The position numbers and the translations under genes were made by a program. From NCBI GenBank assembly GCA_008690995.1, contig VRMN01000002.1:1674001-1738000 (forward strand): 64,000 nucleotides of DNA. Reading direction: 5' to 3'. Source of the DNA: Porphyridium purpureum. Taxonomy: Eukaryota. The number at the start of each line of letters is the position of its first letter. Position 1 is the first letter of the stretch. Below, piece by piece: positions 15,163-60,905 of the stretch. Under the pieces are notes generated by a model. It saw only the letters and a program-made list of their open reading frames with translations, was not told the origin of the DNA and did not search any database.

Positions 15163-15836
15163 TCAACTAGTCATCACTGGAGACTTTAGGATGCTATCTA
15201 GCATGTCGAGAAGGTCTTCCACTTCGCTCAGCGCTGTGTACCTGTTCTTTGACGTCAGCGCCTTGTCCAGGCCTTCGATGCGCTTTTTCAATTGATCCGG
15301 CATTTTCTTCGCCTTATCCGGGACCTCCCCGGTCGTCCTGGAAAGAACATTGCTGATATATCCGGGCACAGGTGTGATCCAAACGGCCATGTAGCGCTTT
15401 GCATATGCACATTCTTCGTCCTCCATAGCCTTCACAAGTTTCGGACCAGGCGGGCCCTTGATCAGCTTTTCGAGCTCTTTGGCCTTTGGTAGCGCCTCTT
15501 GCACGCGTGCGATCATAGCCCTGCGGTTGGGATCTTTCATGGGCGCCATGAACTTGTCAAAATTGCGTTGCATCTGCCGCACCTCATTCATCGGCTTCTG
15601 CAACTGAAAGTTCTTCTCCAGGTTCAGATCCAACGGCTTGGGCGCCTTCAGATCGGTTGGTAGGGTCGGTACCCACACCTGGACCTTGTCAGGGATGGCA
15701 GGTGGCGGCGGGAGATACAGCGCTCCGGCCTGCTGTTGGTTGGCGGCCAACGGCGTCACCAATCCCGCCAACACCAGGGCGCTCCTGAGCACGTCTCTTC
15801 TGCCGACGCCCTCCTCAGTACGCTGCTGCGGTGGCA

Positions 15837-15867
<31 letters not shown>

Positions 15868-16053
15868 ATGCGGCGGCAGCTGCGGCTGCGGCTGCTCTGA
15901 TTCCGTCTCGTTCTGACAGAAATTCAGCACGGCCGGCCTCGAGCCGCAGCTGGAGCGCTTGCGTTGCTTCACACTCATGCGCGCTGGTGACGACGTCGGC
16001 GAGGCTCCCACGAAGCCCAGCGAGCGCCGCGCGCCTTCCGAACCCTCTGCCAT
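15163..16053 (-). CDS. Putative thylakoid-lumen protein (transit peptide plus Tat signal), helical-bundle domain, possibly PsbQ-like; paralogue of the 16872-17543 gene
   Basis: GRRDVLRSALVLAGLVTPLAANQQQAGA Tat signal ending in AxA; Pro-rich mature N-terminus; helical C-domain similar to the neighbour. Confidence 0.75.
15838..15868 (-). repeat. (CAG)n repeat encoding poly-Gln in the targeting region
   Basis: ctgctgctg... run on + strand. Confidence 0.9.
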
Positions 16054-20869: not shown

Positions 20870-21976
20870 TTAATAAATTCCTAAAATTGTAAGAACGGCA
20901 AACACTAAGAAGAGCACACCACCAATAAGGCGAGCGTTGCGCTCCGTCAGGTACTCACTGAGGAAGGACCCGCCCACAACAGCGATGATGGACGCGATGG
21001 CGTGTCCAGAGATACCGCCGAGTACGACGCCAAGCGGACTCTTTGCAGCCGCCAGCGCAATGGTCGTGAGCATGGATTTGTCGCCCCACTCGGCCAGAAA
21101 GATTAGCGTGAATGTTTCCACGATGATCTTGATGTCCTCGGATCGTGACAGCGCCTGGATCCATCCCGGTCGCGAGCCCTTGGACTTTTCTGACTCGGCT
21201 TCTGCAATCGCCTCCTCGGCGTCACGCTTTTCCCCATCGGCATCGTCTTTGCCCATTGCCAGTCCGCTTCGGATATTGTCAATGCCGAACCACACGAGCA
21301 GCGCCACAGCGGCGTAATCGTCCAGAGGGATAGACGTATTCAGTGACGATGGAAGTGCGTGAAACACCTGCCCGATCCCTACAGAAATCAATGTCATCAG
21401 CGAAAGTGCGCCCAAGGTTCCCACAAGCACCAATCGTTTTGCGTACTTGAGCGACAAGAGAGCCGAAATGAAGAACGTCTTGTCACCTATCTCAGACGAC
21501 AACACAAGCAGGAAGCTCGACGTGAAACCGGCGGAAAAGCTGTCAAGCTCTGCGTTCAGCGGCAGCCCGGTCACGCCGGCCGCCATCGCAAGCGCAGGCA
21601 TCACAAACGCCTTGCTGAGAAGCGCACCGCCCGCCGTACACACCAGCATCCGCACTACCGCTCGAGACATGGCCTTCCACGTCCATCCCAGACTCGAATG
21701 TGGCTGCGGCTTTTCCACCGTTTGCGTTTTCCGCGCCACCGCCAAGTTTGCGCTCTGCTCAGAAACTTCCGCGTTGGCACCACAACTTACATCCACCTCA
21801 ACATCAGGATCGTTGAGTGGTTGCTGCATGCCCATCTGCCACATCAACCGCCGCGTCGGCCTCGCTCGAAACCCTTTCGCGTCCACACTCACAACCCGCT
21901 TGGATCCTGATTCAAAAACGGGATGACGCCCGTGTCGGCGTCCTGCGAGCGCAGGCACGCCCACAACAAATGCCAT
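20870..21976 (-). CDS. GDT1/UPF0016 Mn2+/Ca2+ transporter, plastid (CMT1/PAM71-HL-like)
   Basis: Two signature motifs EIGDKT and EWGDKS; MAFV transit peptide. Confidence 0.93.
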   Translation of the reverse strand: MAFVVGVPALAGRRHGRHPVFESGSKRVVSVDAKGFRARPTRRLMWQMGMQQPLNDPDVEVDVSCGANAEVSEQSANLAVARKTQTVEKPQPHSSLGWTWKAMSRAVVRMLVCTAGGALLSKAFVMPALAMAAGVTGLPLNAELDSFSAGFTSSFLLVLSSEIGDKTFFISALLSLKYAKRLVLVGTLGALSLMTLISVGIGQVFHALPSSLNTSIPLDDYAAVALLVWFGIDNIRSGLAMGKDDADGEKRDAEEAIAEAESEKSKGSRPGWIQALSRSEDIKIIVETFTLIFLAEWGDKSMLTTIALAAAKSPLGVVLGGISGHAIASIIAVVGGSFLSEYLTERNARLIGGVLFLVFAVLTILGIY

Positions 21977-50892: not shown

Positions 50893-51024
50893 CGCTTGCG
50901 CCCTCAGGACCGCCACTCCCGCTTTCGCACCTCTGCATATGACGCCGAGACCTTGCGCCACCTCGCACGCCTTCGCCCCGAGAAAAAGACAACCAGAAGC
51001 ATCTTTATGTGAAAGGAGCACGTT

Positions 51025-51660
51025 TTACCAGACGTTTCGAACTAGGGTTTCGGCGGAGCTTTGGAGCTTTGGTGCTTGTTGTTGGTCGAGGAGTCCGCAA
51101 TCAACGATGGTGACTGGTTGCTTGGGTCGATTCTGTGGGCCCACACCGCCGATCTCTTCCATGTGGTAGATGACAGACATGCCCTCTAGCACGCGGCCAA
51201 ATGCAATGTAGCGGCCGTCAAGGTACCCAGAGTCGGCCTTGGTCTGGATCAGAAACCGAGAGTCGGCCTTGCCATCGCGCGCATGGCACATGCTAATCAG
51301 CCCGGCCACTGAGTGCCGCAGATCAAAGTTCTCAGGCATATAGCTGCCGCCGGGAAGTATGGCGCGGCCTTGCTTGCCTTTGGAGGAAGGAATGTCGCCA
51401 CCTTGGACAGTGAGGCCGGACACGACGCGGTAGAACGAGCTGCCACGGTATCCGGCACCCTCTTTGTCTGTGATCAGACCCACAAAATTCTGGACCGTGG
51501 TCGGGGCAACATCTCCAAAAAGGCCAATCACAATGCGCTGTGGCTCCTCGCCTTCCACTTGCACATCCATGAAGCACTTCTGAGTAATTTTCGGCGGATA
51601 CTCACGCGGGTCAAGTTTCCACTTCGGCCCCTCATCCGCACGACTTGGACGCACGAGAAG
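51025..51660 (-). CDS. Cyclophilin-type PPIase exon, probably thylakoid lumenal; appears to be the terminal exon of the upstream aminopeptidase P gene
   Basis: RIVIGLFGDVAPTTVQNF, YRGSSFYRV, QGGD, ENFDLRH, LDGRYIAFGRVLEGM; preceded by pyrimidine tract and CAG acceptor at 51661. Confidence 0.88.
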   Translation of the reverse strand, partial: LLVRPSRADEGPKWKLDPREYPPKITQKCFMDVQVEGEEPQRIVIGLFGDVAPTTVQNFVGLITDKEGAGYRGSSFYRVVSGLTVQGGDIPSSKGKQGRAILPGGSYMPENFDLRHSVAGLISMCHARDGKADSRFLIQTKADSGYLDGRYIAFGRVLEGMSVIYHMEEIGGVGPQNRPKQPVTIVDCGLLDQQQAPKLQSSAETLVRNVW

Positions 51661-51839
51661 CTGTGTACATCGATAAGCGGAACAAGACAGAGGAAAGGAA
51701 AGGTCGGTCGAGGCCAACACGACGCATAGCATGGAGTGGAATGAAATAAAATGGTACACGTCATCATTGGTCAGAAACATCATACTGCATGGCACCAGCT
51801 TGAAAGCGCTCGGACATTTGATCACTGACAAGGACTTAC
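51661..51839 (-). other. Spliceosomal intron (179 nt) joining the aminopeptidase P/Tat-signal exon to the cyclophilin exon
   Basis: GAG/GTAAGT donor, TCTGAC branch-like motif, TTCCTTTCCTCTGTCTTGTT tract, ACACAG/CTT acceptor; phase 0 at both ends. Confidence 0.8.
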
Positions 51840-54008
51840 CTCTCCATTTCCAAACAGAAGGGCCAGCGCGCCGAGACCGATCGTAGACTTGATGAAATCC
51901 CTCCGACTTTCCTCACCCGTACTGTCCGTCCCCTGACCGTCACGTAGAGGAGTTGTACTGGCCCGCAACCAGTTCAGCGTGACAGTGTCGTTCTCCGAGA
52001 TTCGAGGCGAAATCGAGTCCCATACCTCGCGGTGGTATAAATCGATCCAGTCGCGCTCCTCCTGACTGAGCAGTTCGACTGCAATCATTCTTTTCTGGAT
52101 GGGCACCTTCGTGAGTCGCGAGAATCCTAGGAATTGCGCGTTCCCAAATGTTTTAACATCGCGCAACTTCTCCTCCACAACGAGCAAGTTCTCGATGCGA
52201 ATGCCGAAAGCACCGTCCTCGTAGTACCCTGGCTCGTTGCTGACCACCATTCCCGGTTGCAGTCCCTGCGTATTCTGCATTCGCGGGCTGATTCCATGCG
52301 GGCCTTCATGCACGTTGAGTGCGGCTCCCACGCCATGTCCCGTGCCGTGCCGATAATCCAGACCCGCCTGCCACAAGGCATTTCTTGCGAGTGTGTCAAG
52401 CAACGCACCCGGCGTTCGCGCTGGAAATATCGCGGCGTCAATCGCAATGTGTCCCTTCAGTACTCTAGTGAACGTTTCCTTTTGCCACGCGCTAGGCTCA
52501 CCGAAATGGACGGTGCGCGTGACATCGGTGGTGCCGACATCATACTGCGCCCCAGAATCCAACAAAAATAGCTCGTCCACGCTGACCTTGCGACAAGACG
52601 CCTCCTGTGCCCGATAATGGATCACAGCGCCGTTAGGTCCGGAGCCCGCGATGGTCGGAAAGCTGCAGAACAAATGGCCAGGCTGCTCCGAGCGGAACTT
52701 GTCCACCTGCAAGTCGACTTCGTACTCGGTCAGTGTGTTGCCTTTCGCCAGGTGTTCCTCGGCCCACGCGAAGAAACGAGACAGAGCAACGCCGTCACGC
52801 AGGTGCGCTTCACGCATACCCGCAAGCTCGGCGTCGTTTTTGAGCGCCTTTGCCAATACTATTGGCGAGGTCTGCAGCACTGCCTCTTTGCACTTTTGGA
52901 AGATTCCGTACGAAACCGTCTGAGGGTCGAGCCACACTTTTTCGAGAGCGGAAATATCGCAGAATATCTGTTCATAGTCACACACAGTGACTCCATGGCC
53001 GCTAAGCGACGATTTAAGCTCCTCAGACACTTTAGCACCGTCCACGTACCACTTGGCTGTGCCATCTGCAAATACGAGGCAGTACGACAGCACTAATTGC
53101 GACTCTTTGTAATCTGTTCCGCGAATATTCAGCAGCCAGGCTACTTCATCTAGCATGCTCACGCACAAAGCATCAGCTCCGTGCTTCTGAATCGCTGCAC
53201 CGATTTCCTTGAGTTTCTCGGTCCGCGGTTTACCTGCGTACGCAAGCGGGTGCTCACGCACTGCACCGGCTGGCATTCCTGGCCTTTCGGTGCCCCACAC
53301 CTCATCGATGAGGTTTGTGTCGCTCACGGTGATCAGCTTGATGTTCTTTTCATTGAGTGTTTTCTCTAGAGACTGCGCGTTTGCTGTGACGTGCACCAGC
53401 GGGTCGATGGCCACCTGACCATTTTCGGGCAAAGAATCGGCAAGGAAAGTCTCAATGGTCGGAGTGTCTGGCATCCCGGCTTTCATTAGCGTCCAGTCTC
53501 CGGACAGCTCTGTGGACGCCTGCAGAAAATACCTGCCGTCTGTCCAGAGCAGCGCCTTGTCTCTCAGAATCACCGCCGTGCCCGCCGACCCAGAGAAGCC
53601 CGAAATGAATGCGCGCCGAAGAAAGCATGGTGCAGCATACTCTGAATTGTGCGGGTCAGCGGACGGGACAATCAACGCATCAATCCCGCGCTCCACCATG
53701 ACCCGCTGCTGCAAGTCCTTGAGCGCGTCCTTCTCACGGCCGCCGACCGCCTTGACATTCAGACTCATAGCCATCCTTCTACCTCCACGGCCAAGCCGCC
53801 CTGGGTTAGCCATGCCATCCCAATTCCGGCTCTGGCTCTGACTACTGATCCCGTGCCATGACGCGCGTCTTCCGATGCAGGCAGATCGGCGCGCGAACTC
53901 AAAGCATCCATTCGGTGCGGTCACACGGCACGCATGGCTTTGTGCACGTGCTTGTGCGCCGGCGCAGGTACGTGCGAGGCCTGCTTGTGCCGCAGCAAAC
54001 GCAAACAT
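51822..54008 (-). CDS. Xaa-Pro aminopeptidase P (M24B) with organellar transit peptide; C-terminus carries a Tat-like signal (exon ends at 51840 if spliced)
   Basis: DPHNSEY, SGFSGSAG, WTDGRYF, DSGAQY..GTTDVTRT, HGTGHGVG..VHEGP, NEPGYY..GIRIEN. Confidence 0.93.
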   Translation of the reverse strand: MFAFAAAQAGLARTCAGAQARAQSHACRVTAPNGCFEFARRSACIGRRASWHGISSQSQSRNWDGMANPGRLGRGGRRMAMSLNVKAVGGREKDALKDLQQRVMVERGIDALIVPSADPHNSEYAAPCFLRRAFISGFSGSAGTAVILRDKALLWTDGRYFLQASTELSGDWTLMKAGMPDTPTIETFLADSLPENGQVAIDPLVHVTANAQSLEKTLNEKNIKLITVSDTNLIDEVWGTERPGMPAGAVREHPLAYAGKPRTEKLKEIGAAIQKHGADALCVSMLDEVAWLLNIRGTDYKESQLVLSYCLVFADGTAKWYVDGAKVSEELKSSLSGHGVTVCDYEQIFCDISALEKVWLDPQTVSYGIFQKCKEAVLQTSPIVLAKALKNDAELAGMREAHLRDGVALSRFFAWAEEHLAKGNTLTEYEVDLQVDKFRSEQPGHLFCSFPTIAGSGPNGAVIHYRAQEASCRKVSVDELFLLDSGAQYDVGTTDVTRTVHFGEPSAWQKETFTRVLKGHIAIDAAIFPARTPGALLDTLARNALWQAGLDYRHGTGHGVGAALNVHEGPHGISPRMQNTQGLQPGMVVSNEPGYYEDGAFGIRIENLLVVEEKLRDVKTFGNAQFLGFSRLTKVPIQKRMIAVELLSQEERDWIDLYHREVWDSISPRISENDTVTLNWLRASTTPLRDGQGTDSTGEESRRDFIKSTIGLGALALLFGNGEVSPCQ

Positions 54009-54453
54009 CCTGCTGTGTCGTCAGCTTACCTCCAGCGCTCCTGTCTCTCACGTGAAAACTCCTGGCCTTCGTTCCATCACATCACGCGCGCCGACTGCGC
54101 ACTGTTCCGCGCTGTACATCTTAGATGTTGAGCTCGTGACGATCTGCAGCCTCGACGGCTCAAAGGGAGAAGACCAAAGGATAGAACGACTCGAACGCGC
54201 TTGTGCGTTTGTGCGCTGGTCAGAAGCCGCGTGCTGGCAGGGAATGCGTGCGGCTGCCCTGACATGATGTGGGTCAGCGCCCTATCCCGATGATGGGCAG
54301 GACTGTGATATTTTGGCTCGCGAGACATGCTTTGAGAAGTCGACAGAGCCGTCCATGACCGCAGAATGGTTGGTGCCGCTGCGCGGATGAAGGATGGATT
54401 GGCCCAGGGCGCGATGTGAGGCTGTGAGAAGCTCGCCGACGTCGTTGTACGGG

Positions 54454-54612: not shown

Positions 54613-55263
54613 ATGATGCGAAAATCGTTGATTGTGGCGCTTCTGGTGGCGCTGCTGGCCATACTCGCTATGCATGCAGTTAGTGCGCAGACCATGACAC
54701 CGACGCCGACGCCGACCCCATCCCCGATGCCGTCACCGTCGCCGGCGTTGCGTGTGATTGAGGAGGAAGTTGACGAGGAATTGGAGTTTGACCTGCCTCT
54801 GGACTTTGAGCGCCAGATCTTGGTAGACACAGAGATCCCGCGAGCAGAAGAGACCGAGATTCCCATTGCCGAGCGTACATACAAGGGCTACGATAGCAAG
54901 GGCTACGATAGCAAGGGCTACGGCGGCAAGGGCTACGGCGGCAAGGGCTACGATAGCAAGGGCTACGGCGGCAAGGGCTACGACGGCAAGGGCTACGATA
55001 GCAAGGGCTACGGCGGATACGAGGATAAGAGCTACGGCGGCAAGGGGTATGGTGGATACGAGGATAAGAGCTATGGCGGCAAGGGGTATGGTGGATACGA
55101 GGATAAGAGCTATGGCGGAAAGGGCTATGGTGGATACGAGGACAAGAGCTATGGCGGAAAGGGCTATGGTGGATACGAGGACAAGAGCTATGGCGGAAAG
55201 AGGTACGGTGGATACGGTGGCAAGAAGCTGGATGGAAAGAGCAAATCAAAGGGGTACTACTGA
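54613..55263 (+). CDS. Secreted Gly/Tyr/Lys-rich repeat protein with a Thr-Pro/Ser-Pro segment
   Basis: Signal peptide MMRKSLIVALLVALLAILAMHAVSA; TPTPTPTPSPMPSPSP; KGYDS/KGYGG and YGGYEDKSYGGKG repeats. Confidence 0.85.
   Translation: MMRKSLIVALLVALLAILAMHAVSAQTMTPTPTPTPSPMPSPSPALRVIEEEVDEELEFDLPLDFERQILVDTEIPRAEETEIPIAERTYKGYDSKGYDSKGYGGKGYGGKGYDSKGYGGKGYDGKGYDSKGYGGYEDKSYGGKGYGGYEDKSYGGKGYGGYEDKSYGGKGYGGYEDKSYGGKGYGGYEDKSYGGKRYGGYGGKKLDGKSKSKGYY
54883..55220 (+). repeat. Coding tandem repeats: about 9 x 15-bp units (KGY[DG][SG]) followed by about 5 x 39-bp units (YGGYEDKSYGGKG)
   Basis: Visible in DNA and protein; copies vary mainly at synonymous positions. Confidence 0.92.
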
Positions 55264-57913: not shown

Positions 57914-57940
57914 AGGCGCTCATGCCTTTTTGGCTGTACC

Positions 57941-60905
57941 ATGGCGGCTCGGTCAAGTGGGGTGGAACGGAGCGCCGTCTGCCGGCCGACACAGAGTCTG
58001 ACTTGCACTGGGGAGAGACAGACAGGGTCCGATAGCTCTTCGAACTTGCATATCGTGGCGTTGATCGAGAACAAAGCCCATCAAGTAGGGATTGCAGCAT
58101 ACAGCCAGTTGTCGTCGCATGTAGAGCTCAGGCAAGTATGCGATGGTAATCTCTTCATCGATACACTCACAGTGCTTGCCATCTTACCGTATGTTCACTC
58201 GCAACCCCGTGTCAGGCGAATCACTCAGGAGATGTGAGCCATTGCGTCTTCGTTGCCATGTTCATGCACTGACCAAAGCGATCCCTTTTATTTTTTCCAT
58301 GATGGTATCCCGCAGGCCTAGCGAAGTGATCTTGTCATCCACCAGCGCAGGCATGGCGCTTGATCTTGTGCTTCAAGAATCAGGTATTCTAGCTGAAGCC
58401 AGGACGTCGTATGTCGAAAGGAAGCTGTTCAGCGAACTGCGCGGCAAGACGCTTCTTGATTTGTACTGCGCGCGGGGCCCCGAATACGCACTTGGTGCTG
58501 GGTGCCTTCCCACGGCGCAACCATATCTCGCTGTAGCTGCATTCGCTGCACTTCTGGACCACGTGAACATCTCCTTCCCCCCTCAGGCAATGAAAGTGAC
58601 GTACTGTTCGCCGGATGACACACTCTCCTTGGATTGGAGTACCATCTCGCAGCTTGAACTGCTCGGATCCGGAGCTTTCCAAGTTGATGCGCAGACTCAA
58701 CAGGAGAACTGCTCTCTGCTCGGCATCCTGCAACAGATGATTTCGACGCGCATGGGTGCCCGCTTTATGAGGCGTAATCTGTTGGAACCACTCAGCGACT
58801 TGGCGTCCATTGCCATGCGGCAAGATGCAGTCCAAACGCTTCTCCTGCACGAAGCGGCCTTTTTCCAAGCAACAAAGAGTCTCGCAAAGTTCCCGGATCT
58901 TGAGAATGGCATTTCGCTTATTCTGCGTCGTTTCATGCAGCCGCAGGAGGGACATGGAGCCATTCCAAGCATGGCCGTGTACGGGCAGAATTTCAATGCA
59001 TCGGTACTCCGCAATGTCAAGGTGATTTCCCAATTGTACGAAGCCTTGGCTCTGCTTCCAGAACTCGCAGAATCGATTGCTCTCGCACAGCAAGCTTCAT
59101 CGTCCGCTGCTGCTGCTGCTAATGTGGACAAGTCCGCACCTTCGGAGCAGAGGAACGGAGCAGTCCGTTCTAACGGAAACGCACTCTTAGAAAGCGTTTA
59201 TCGCGCGTGCGTGGATCCGGGAATCGTCTCCATCACACACGAGATCACGCAGGTTGTCGAGGCACCTTTGCATGCTGCTCATCATCAAGCTGACACCACA
59301 AGGCCTTTAAATGGCAAACGCGCGATACCAGAAAGCAGTCGCCGCTCACCAAACGCAGCGGAGCGCTCGCGGCTGTATCTTGCGCGCATTGTTCGTGGTA
59401 ATTTAAATCCTCTGCTTGACGTGGCTCGCCAAATCCTGGCTGAAATTTTGGAGGACATTGAAGATCACTGGAGCGCCATCCGCGACTCCCTTTTGCATGC
59501 CATGACGATTGAATTAACGTTTTTGCCCAGCCGCTCGTACGTGCTGCGAGCGTATGCGCGAGAATGGAATGCCTTCTGGGGAAATGCTGAACGAAATGGC
59601 ACCAGTGGTCCGGAGAGCTCTGAGTTCCAATTTACTCAAATTGCGATCCGAAAGGCCTCTGTGTTGTTTTCCACACAGAAGCTGATTGACCTCAACACGC
59701 GCTTTGAGCGCACTTTCGCGGAAATCGTCACTCTGAGCTCCTCCGCGTTGCAGGCTCTGCTGGCGAGCGTATGGAGTCCGCCCGTCATCCTATCACTGCA
59801 TCGGATGTGCGATGCGATTGCCATTTTCGACTGCCTCTTGGGCTTTGCGAAGCTGGTCGCTTCACAGGACGGATACACGCGACCGCGCATTTCCGTGCAG
59901 GGGCCTTTGGCGTTCAAGAAATTGCGGAACGTACTTCTAGAAACGCGTAGCAGTAGTAGTAGTCGCGCCAGGCATGACCAGTCGCGACTCTGTGCTCCCA
60001 ACGATGCGTTTGTGAGTCCGTATGGGCCTCGTGTTGTTCTAATTTCGGGCGCGAATATGTCGGGAAAGACGACATACATCAAAAGTGTTGCCCTGGCTGT
60101 CATTCTTGCTCATGTGGGGTGTTGGGTGCCGGCAGACCGCGCGTATGTCCCAGTACTGCGGTGCCTTCGCTCGCGGTGCAGCTTTGAAGATAGCCTCCAG
60201 AACAATCACTCATCGTTTTCACGGGAAGTAAGTGACATGGCAGCGGCTATAGCCCATATCAATACTCGGAGCACAACTGGATCAGCATCGCGCTCAGAAT
60301 CTGCCTCAAGATCTGATCATGGCCATCACGTGGATGAGCGTCGGAGTTTGCTGATTGTGGATGAATTCGGTCGCAGCACTTCACATCTTGAAGGATTTGC
60401 TCTTGCTTGGAGCACAGTTGAGTTTCTTGCTGATTCTTGCAAGGTGTTGTGCCTCTTCACCACTCACTTTCCCGACTTGGGCCGTGTGACGCGGGTAAAT
60501 TTGCGTGTTCAAGAGTTCCACATGCGCAGCGGCTCCGAGCCGTCGCAGTTTGAGCTGATTGAAGGACCTCTGGATGACACGCGGTACGGGCTACGTACGG
60601 CAGAAGCATGCGGAATACCTGAAATTGTGACTGCTCGCGCGCGAGCGCTCATGGAGACTGGGGAGATGAGCCCTGCACTGCGCGACATGTCGTTAGACAC
60701 AGGATCGTGCGCGCGTGTATCAGTTGGTTACGAGCAGGGACAACAGGAAGATGACGAACTGACGCGCGTTTTCAAAGCGTACGAAAGCGCTCGCTCTTTT
60801 GCGACGAATATTACGCTGCTTAAATCGATTGAAACAGAGCCGGCTAAGCTCAGAGAGTGCTTGAGGCGCATGAAAGCTTCATTGACAACTTCCATTCCCC
60901 AGTGA
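57941..60905 (+). CDS. MSH4: MutS homologue 4 (meiotic); exons 57941-58188 and 58316-60905
   Basis: IVALIENKAHQVGIAA N-terminus without mismatch-binding domain I; Walker A GANMSGKTT; SSFSRE; LLIVDEFGRST; FTTHF; YGL..A. Confidence 0.85.
58189..58315 (+). other. Spliceosomal intron of MSH4 (127 nt)
   Basis: CC/GTATGT donor, ACTGAC branch-like motif, U-rich tract, CGCAG/G acceptor; phase 2 at both ends. Confidence 0.85.

Follow-up and report, generated by a model that had tools for sequence, protein, structure and literature searches.

An expressed Porphyridium purpureum gene joining aminopeptidase P to a cyclophilin through an internal twin-arginine signal-like segment

In a window of 64,000 nucleotides (nt) from the red alga Porphyridium purpureum, which is the whole stretch of DNA analysed here, positions 51025-54008 of the minus strand hold one expressed gene whose spliced mRNA encodes, in a single frame, an aminopeptidase P (APP) and a cyclophilin with a twin-arginine signal-like segment between them. 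The intron between the two coding exons lies inside the signal, and its retention is as common as splicing or commoner, affecting about half to most of the transcripts. Judged from the sequence, it is fairly probable that one precursor supplies two compartments by way of a predicted export of the cyclophilin by twin-arginine translocation (Tat) and cleavage at the thylakoid. The parts of the gene are listed below, with residue numbers referring to the spliced chain of 934 amino acids (aa).

53750..54008, minus strand: N-terminal leader, predicted plastid transit peptide, approximately residues 1-85 (composition, position before the first domain)
51945..53708, minus strand: aminopeptidase P of the three-domain M24B type, residues 101-688 (PF01321, PF16189, PF00557, PF16188)
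51909..51944, minus strand: short polar linker, residues 689-700 (sequence; homologues normally end about here)
51840..51908, minus strand: n- and h-region (residues 701-723) of the internal twin-arginine signal, with the arginine pair (RR) at 702-703 (motif, hydrophobicity, TIGR01409)
51661..51839, minus strand: 179-nt phase-0 intron inside the signal, 5' of the c-region, often retained (sequence, RNA)
51637..51660, minus strand: c-region of the signal (residues 724-731), holding basic residues, Ser-x-Ala and the predicted processing site (sequence)
51025..51636, minus strand: cyclophilin-fold domain, predicted mature form of 203 aa and 22.2 kDa (PF00160, E 1.7e-31; stop codon 51027-51025)

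Splicing, intron retention and transcript continuity

Exon 1 (54008-51840, 723 codons) and exon 2 (51660-51025) are separated by an intron (51839-51661) which begins with GTAAGT, ends with CAG, and contains a pyrimidine tract as well as a CTGAC branch-like site near 51774. Its GC content is 47% versus 57% in the exons, and the hexamer GTAAGT occurs just four times in the 64 kb with both strands counted. Both splice sites are in phase 0, and their joining gives the frame of 934 aa without internal stop; the unspliced open reading frame (ORF) from 54008 ends after 728 aa at the stop codon 51824-51822. In databases, the gene is entered as two proteins, namely the 728-aa form and a cyclophilin of 181 aa starting from an internal Met and carrying no targeting signal.

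RNA evidence was taken from six sequencing runs (X1, X3, X6, X15, X23 and X24) of 24 listed, originating from five studies. Of these, X23 and X24 are stranded raw reads; X1, X6 and X15 were used as contigs, and their records do not label them as RNA. Five of the six runs carry the joint 51660/51840, as do four of the five studies: X23 yields seven spliced reads (six starts) plus four short loose ends, X24 yields five reads (five starts), and contigs of X15, X6 and X1 contain it as well. In X3, the spliced joint is absent and only the unspliced form is seen, on one contig of 3031 nt that spans both halves. Across the six runs, neither a second splice joint is listed nor an indel. Sense-strand coverage is continuous from 51018 to about 54060, with RNA 3' ends clustering at 51018, approximately 7 nt past the stop codon, and transcript contigs ending near 54060. 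The in-frame use of donor 51839 and acceptor 51661, which the earlier note had predicted and for which it had named junction reads and transcript continuity as the check, is thus borne out. An assembly error that deleted the stop codon of APP was considered and ruled out, since the independent runs carry neither an indel nor a listed variant between 51377 and 52568.

Quantification of the two forms differs between data types. Junction and intron depths in the contigs are 8.7/6.9, 17.9/23.5 and 23.1/28.2, corresponding to 43-56% splicing; in the raw reads, an intron depth of 31-41 is met by 5-11 junction reads, i.e., about 10-25% splicing, with junction reads being undercounted. For X23 and X24, DNA contamination as the source of the intron reads is ruled out because these are strand-specific (31-41 versus 0-1.8), and a sense depth of about 0 beyond 54129 likewise counts against it. 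Retention ends translation at 51822, as the earlier note had stated, yet the resulting 728-aa product is not APP alone, given that RR and the hydrophobic region stay on it as a C-terminal tail. The suggestion of a switch by alternative splicing fared similarly: retention is abundant, but regulation did not find support, as the related genes of the Cyanidiophyceae appear to be free of introns and inefficient splicing is general in that group. Splicing efficiencies of 0.42-0.50 are given for three Cyanidiophyceae, a set that does not include the Porphyridium lineage, in the available text of a preprint (bioRxiv 10.64898/2026.05.17.725761).

Read depth also bears on the possibility that the cyclophilin is mostly made separately, with transcription starting internally or translation re-initiating at intron ATGs, and the spliced fusion being a minor product. 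In its favour, mRNA that keeps the intron is abundant, and the cyclophilin frame runs open through the intron and offers ATGs at 51783, 51780 and 51732. Furthermore, X23 has a depth of about 37 over the intron but about 85 over exon 2, with the transition at 51640-51710, X6 shows 29.7 versus 16.8, and the two halves are separate proteins in databases. Over 52450-52050, a ramp in depth is found in both raw runs; together with the exon-2 excess it could reflect 3' bias or an internal start, both being possible. On the other hand, the raw reads show no pile of molecule ends or starts within 51300-52500, and depth over the two exons is nearly equal in X1 and X15 (45.2/39.8 and 27.6/23.3). The open intron frame is within chance, as 8.9% of shuffles are likewise open, the leader it would encode has no RR, and in distant red algae the two halves form a single protein. 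A separate start inside the 3' region of APP, raised in the earlier note as a refutation, accordingly finds no end pile in its favour, while the exon-2 excess of X23 leaves some room for it; overall, separate production is regarded as very improbable.

Some further observations were made in the reads. In X23, a low opposite-strand depth of up to about 5 is confined to exon 2. At 51029, roughly half of the reads or more carry a variant that makes the last Trp codon a stop and shortens the protein by one residue. In X23 and X24, about 19 positions in 51376-54440 have a second letter in approximately half of the reads, as would be expected of a mixture of two alleles or strains. Position 52653 is the start point of 7 of 23 X23 molecules on the antisense mate, with depth falling downstream, and this cluster perhaps represents duplicates or else a premature 3' end within APP.

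The two enzyme-like halves and the signal between them

The N-terminal half matches all four Pfam models of the family (Creatinase_N, Creatinase_N_2, M24 and M24_C) above cut-off over residues 101-688 and matches PDB 3ctz with E 1.9e-153. Residues D415, D426, H489, E523 and E537 of 3ctz, which we take to be the five metal ligands, align with D484, D495, H558, E592 and E606, and H485 and H498, presumably active-site histidines, align with H554 and H567; all of them are kept. The closest named relatives include plant aminopeptidase P2 (plastid AMPP2), with about 59-61% identity over residues 380-728, while the nearest named relative overall is from Timspurckia. About 100 residues precede the first domain, as in the leaders of fused relatives and of spinach APP2, and the first 60 of them comprise 1 acidic, 7 basic and 24 Ser, Thr or Ala residues. 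The leader is likely a plastid transit peptide, and its composition together with AMPP2 homology predicts plastid location and Xaa-Pro cleavage for the APP half. None of the best 120 APP homologues, plants and green algae included, carries a cyclophilin. Other partners do occur on APP2 homologues, namely a PAN-like N-terminal region, DDB1-type domains or C-terminal leucine-rich repeats (records P0082, P0085 from Closterium, P0004 from Pyramimonas and P0014 from Parachlorella), which may be model or assembly chimeras.

Exon 2 matches PF00160 with E 1.7e-31, and its Atlas model (predicted template modelling score, pTM, 0.85) superimposes on cyclophilins with template modelling scores of 0.80-0.85; the Atlas search gave no named subfamily for it. 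Phylogenetically, the domain falls into a subfamily of 67 rows with a branch support of 100, which remains at 100/100 in a thinned tree of 49 rows (22 subfamily rows left out, 6 outgroup rows). Named stand-alone members come from the red alga Agarophyton chilense and the raphidophyte Chattonella subsalsa. Following what we take to be the CypA numbering of twelve active-site residues, only four canonical ones are kept (R55, Q63, A103 and L122), the changes being F60L, M61T, A101C, N102H, Q111R, F113L, W121Y and H126Y. Two of these extend through the subfamily, with Gln111 replaced by Arg in 59 of 59 and His126 by Tyr in 58 of 59 rows. From its sequence, the cyclophilin is probably not an isomerase, its likely role being that of a factor in binding or assembly; most lumenal immunophilins are described as lacking peptidyl-prolyl isomerase (PPIase) activity in the available part of PMC3813922. 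Since just four of the twelve residues remain, the rationale of the earlier note, according to which two proline-directed enzymes had been united, is weak and not supported.

Residues 701-707 between the halves read S-R-R-D-F-I-K and fit the Tat consensus S-R-R-x-F-L-K, as given in the accessible text of PMC7317946. This motif leads into the most hydrophobic window of the entire 934-aa chain (15-residue window at 705, where 12 or more residues are expected of an h-region), although the run is short, with means of 1.81 over 15 and 1.46 over 19 residues. The c-region adds the basic residues Arg726 and Arg730 and the AxA-type site Ser729-x-Ala731, which exists only after splicing, just as the earlier note had proposed; a thylakoid processing peptidase site is predicted after Ala731. 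With the TIGR01409 Tat model (cut-off 16.7), the last 72 residues reach 17.8 bits and the whole protein 14.7, and Pfam TAT_signal (PF10518) reaches 16.8 versus a cut-off of 22.7 and thus stays below it. Tat signal peptides are N-terminal, whereas this signal begins at residue 701 behind a folded enzyme.

The origin of the segment is best illustrated by the stand-alone members of the cyclophilin subfamily. Among the 53 of 60 such rows that had at least 45 upstream residues, 41 carry RR followed by a hydrophobic run within 90 residues upstream of the domain; for cyclophilins outside the subfamily, the figure is 10 of 48, after 39 of 87 had been dropped as too short. In the spliced Porphyridium protein, RR lies 44 residues upstream of the cyclophilin, inside the stand-alone range. 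Because stand-alone members carry an RR signal at a similar distance, the internal segment reads as the cyclophilin's own lumen signal, in line with the link between the two that the earlier note had drawn.

Related fusions and the fate of the precursor

APP-cyclophilin single chains are also found in Cyanidiophyceae, i.e., in Cyanidioschyzon merolae (BAM79964.1, 1084 aa, in cluster P0247), Cyanidium caldarium (P0222 and P0289), Cyanidiococcus yangmingshanensis and record P0290. The conservation of the fusion, which the earlier note had named as a check, is hence established for this group. A profile search of longer proteins with a cyclophilin gave nine matches, five of them being such fusions; a single-sequence search for longer cyclophilin homologues had given none, a miss in sensitivity compared with the profile search. 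P0222 is an older gene model of C. caldarium whose first 550 residues are not APP-like, and P0289 models that gene in frame. At JGI, copies of the C. merolae-type fusion are 954-aa calls on contigs of up to 83 kb, and from these calls the Cyanidiophyceae genes appear to be single open frames without intron. Every fusion has a hydrophobic segment about 20-45 residues after APP, with diverging flanks, and its 19-residue means are 1.86-1.94 in P0280 and P0289. For the C. caldarium fusion, AlphaFold (36 alignment rows, 6 of them covering the cyclophilin; mean predicted local distance difference test, pLDDT, 74; pTM 0.68) gives APP and the cyclophilin, separated by disordered stretches in which a single helix of low confidence stands alone at 757-778.

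A counterpart of the Porphyridium segment is found in Timspurckia oligopyrenoides, whose APP ends in S-R-R-D-V-M-K, a hydrophobic run and Ala-Ser-Ala-Glu-Val-stop and is encoded by a transcript of 3084 nt. Protein and transcript length would fit a retained intron with a cyclophilin downstream. Among the best 120 APP homologues, only two have an RR plus hydrophobic tail, namely Porphyridium's own and that of T. oligopyrenoides; the end motif was not located in six rows, the printed ends of which show no such tail. In a metagenome scan, a cyclophilin beside APP was present, within the DNA covered, in 0 of 80 loci among the matches listed, none of which was identified as red-algal; the Timspurckia transcript was not among these matches. 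As two deep red-algal classes share the domain order, the simplest reading is a single ancient fusion that was split later, of which the tree is no proof; red algae probably had the fusion ancestrally, and the Agarophyton lineage would have separated its halves again. Likely, a lumenal cyclophilin gene would have lost its transit peptide, kept its lumen signal and joined behind APP.

According to the proposed mechanism, the precursor would be imported into the plastid via its leader, both domains would fold in the stroma, and Tat would bind the internal RR signal so that only the cyclophilin crosses the thylakoid membrane. A cut after Ala731 would then leave APP on the stromal side and a free 22-kDa cyclophilin in the lumen. 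That Tat accepts an internal signal behind a folded cis domain is described for class V substrates such as FecR (PMC13673990, available text). The retained-intron mRNA would yield a nearly identical APP with the RR and hydrophobic tail and no cyclophilin: cleaved APP (731 residues of the precursor) and the retention product (728) are identical up to residue 723 and 0.4 kDa apart. Because the two APP products are so similar, retention is proposed to lower the dose of cyclophilin relative to APP. Both forms keep the hydrophobic tail and may remain at the membrane. The extended proposal of a natural, cleaved internal Tat signal combined with regulated retention of the intron within it, setting the ratio of stromal to lumenal product and leaving the peptidase unchanged, is put forward as tentative and somewhat doubtful.

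As the main rival, the precursor might stay uncleaved and span the thylakoid membrane once, APP facing the stroma and the cyclophilin being tethered on the lumenal side. Internal class IV and V Tat signals are described as uncleaved in the available text of PMC13673990, and SOQ1 has a stroma/membrane/lumen topology and occurs at full length, as far as its preprint text shows. In addition, the Cyanidiophyceae segments mentioned above are hydrophobic enough for a transmembrane helix, and persistence of the fusion across red-algal classes suggests a benefit from linkage. In contrast, a small-x-Ala site follows the h-region in Porphyridium and also in Timspurckia and C. caldarium, the Porphyridium run is short, and orthologous cyclophilins function apart from APP in other lineages. 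This alternative is considered unlikely.

Cleavage could also take place in the stroma within the polar linker before RR, giving free APP and an ordinary Tat intermediate. Here, the linker is polar and predicted to be disordered, SOQ1 is cleavable between its stromal domain and its membrane helix (available text), and no large folded enzyme would be kept at the translocase. However, no linker motif is conserved across six red-algal sequences, and Tat tolerates a folded cis domain, making such a stromal cut improbable. APP and cyclophilin families both deal with proline peptides, and the signal might thus be vestigial in a soluble stromal two-domain protein whose cyclophilin presents proline-containing substrates to APP, a notion to which the lack of RR in Cyanidiophyceae would also correspond. 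Yet the hydrophobic segment is kept in six of six red-algal sequences despite freely diverging linkers, the consensus RR motif persists in two genera, and the PPIase site is degenerate; a vestigial signal is accordingly the most remote of the explanations.

Several points weigh against a spliced, Tat-exported and cleaved precursor. At the RNA level, spliced reads are the minority in the raw data (7+4 and 5 versus an intron depth of 31-41), the exon-2 depth of X23 (about 85) exceeds the sum of intron and spliced depth (about 48), so that an internal start is possible, and short reads plus contigs do not prove one full-length mRNA. The scores of both Tat hidden Markov models are marginal, and the uncleaved state described for class IV and V signals likewise speaks against cleavage. 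RR precedes the hydrophobic segment in 0 of 6 Cyanidiophyceae rows and the segment of P0290 is only moderately hydrophobic, for which reasons Tat use is not conserved there and those fusions would need the Sec route or a plain transmembrane segment. Finally, the clade of fused cyclophilins has a support of just 87/86, and an approximately unbiased (AU) test does not reject placing the Porphyridium cyclophilin with the Agarophyton clade (p-AU 0.38).

Other features of the window include a plastid-type GDT1 antiporter ORF (20870-21976, minus), which contains one of the four GTAAGT hexamers at 21790, and a 296-aa ORF of lumen type (15163-16053, minus) with a weak PsbQ match over 227 residues, longer than usual. 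A MutS-family gene (57914-60905, plus) with MutS_III and MutS_V has a likely 5' part in another frame (57914-58237) and a GT..AG intron-like stretch near 58190-58315, a possible control intron. The region 54613-55263 (plus) encodes a highly expressed secreted-type protein without Pfam match, composed of a hydrophobic N-terminus, a Thr-Pro run, an acidic stretch and Gly/Tyr/Lys/Ser-rich repeats.

Significance and comparison with known systems

Lumenal proteins are thought to arrive with a bipartite N-terminal presequence of their own. If the cleaved Tat precursor is real, one transit peptide serves two unrelated proteins on opposite sides of the thylakoid membrane, and the translocase handles a natural substrate in which a folded enzyme of 70 kDa precedes the signal. 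The arrangement also suggests how a single plastid transgene could deliver two cargoes. Annotation masks such cases, as this gene stands in databases as two proteins, the second without targeting signal. The domains of the fusion are already visible in public C. merolae records, and no description of an APP-cyclophilin fusion was found in the literature searched, with subscription papers, supplements and one red-algal composite-gene survey outside its scope. New are the second red-algal class, the consensus RR with a peptidase-type site, the RNA proof of the joint and the abundant retention of an intron inside the signal. C. merolae is genetically tractable (PMC13353863, available text) and has the fusion as one protein record, which makes it suitable for direct testing.

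The gene varies known kinds, namely internal Tat signals, the topology of SOQ1 and plastid polyproteins. The latter comprise PsbY and the light-harvesting complex polyproteins of Euglena and dinoflagellates. They share with the Porphyridium precursor that several mature plastid proteins arise from one chain, but consist of repeated homologous membrane units in one compartment, whereas here two unrelated soluble proteins are predicted on opposite thylakoid sides. The lumenal cyclophilins CYP20-2/PnsL5 and CYP38 (PMC3813922) likewise combine a cyclophilin fold with a lumen-type signal; the Porphyridium domain, however, belongs to a separate subfamily (support 100, Arg111, Tyr126).

For the APP half, the reference is Arabidopsis AMPP2 (At3g05350), described in the available text of PMC13557074 as the plastid enzyme removing Ser2 from RbcL. 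Both proteins are three-domain M24B APPs with a transit-peptide-like leader, but plant and green-algal homologues end about 0-33 residues past the domain and have no cyclophilin. A further difference lies in the AMPP2 substrate, RbcL with Ser2-Pro3; we know of no red-type RbcL with such a start.

With respect to topology, SOQ1 offers the same order of stromal enzyme domain, one hydrophobic helix and lumenal domain(s) from one nuclear gene, and is found both at full length and partially cleaved (bioRxiv 10.1101/2021.03.16.435614, available text), its lumenal parts accumulating also as cleaved forms. It differs in being membrane-anchored with unrelated domains. Hence, the precedent invoked in the earlier note is confirmed for topology but not for RR, as the available passages mention neither RR nor Tat ("twin" and "Tat" occur 0 times).

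A further likeness is to internal Tat signals of class V (FecR) and class IV (actinobacterial Rieske proteins; PMC7317946 and PMC13186574, available text), in which an internal twin-arginine signal exports the C-terminal domain only. FecR also shares the arrangement of a folded cis domain, an internal signal and a C-terminal folded domain, Tat transport being predicted in the present case. The class IV and V proteins come from bacteria, are not cleaved and consist of parts with a common function; the Porphyridium protein, in contrast, shows a predicted peptidase site, unites proteins found separately elsewhere, and carries a signal split by a partly retained intron.

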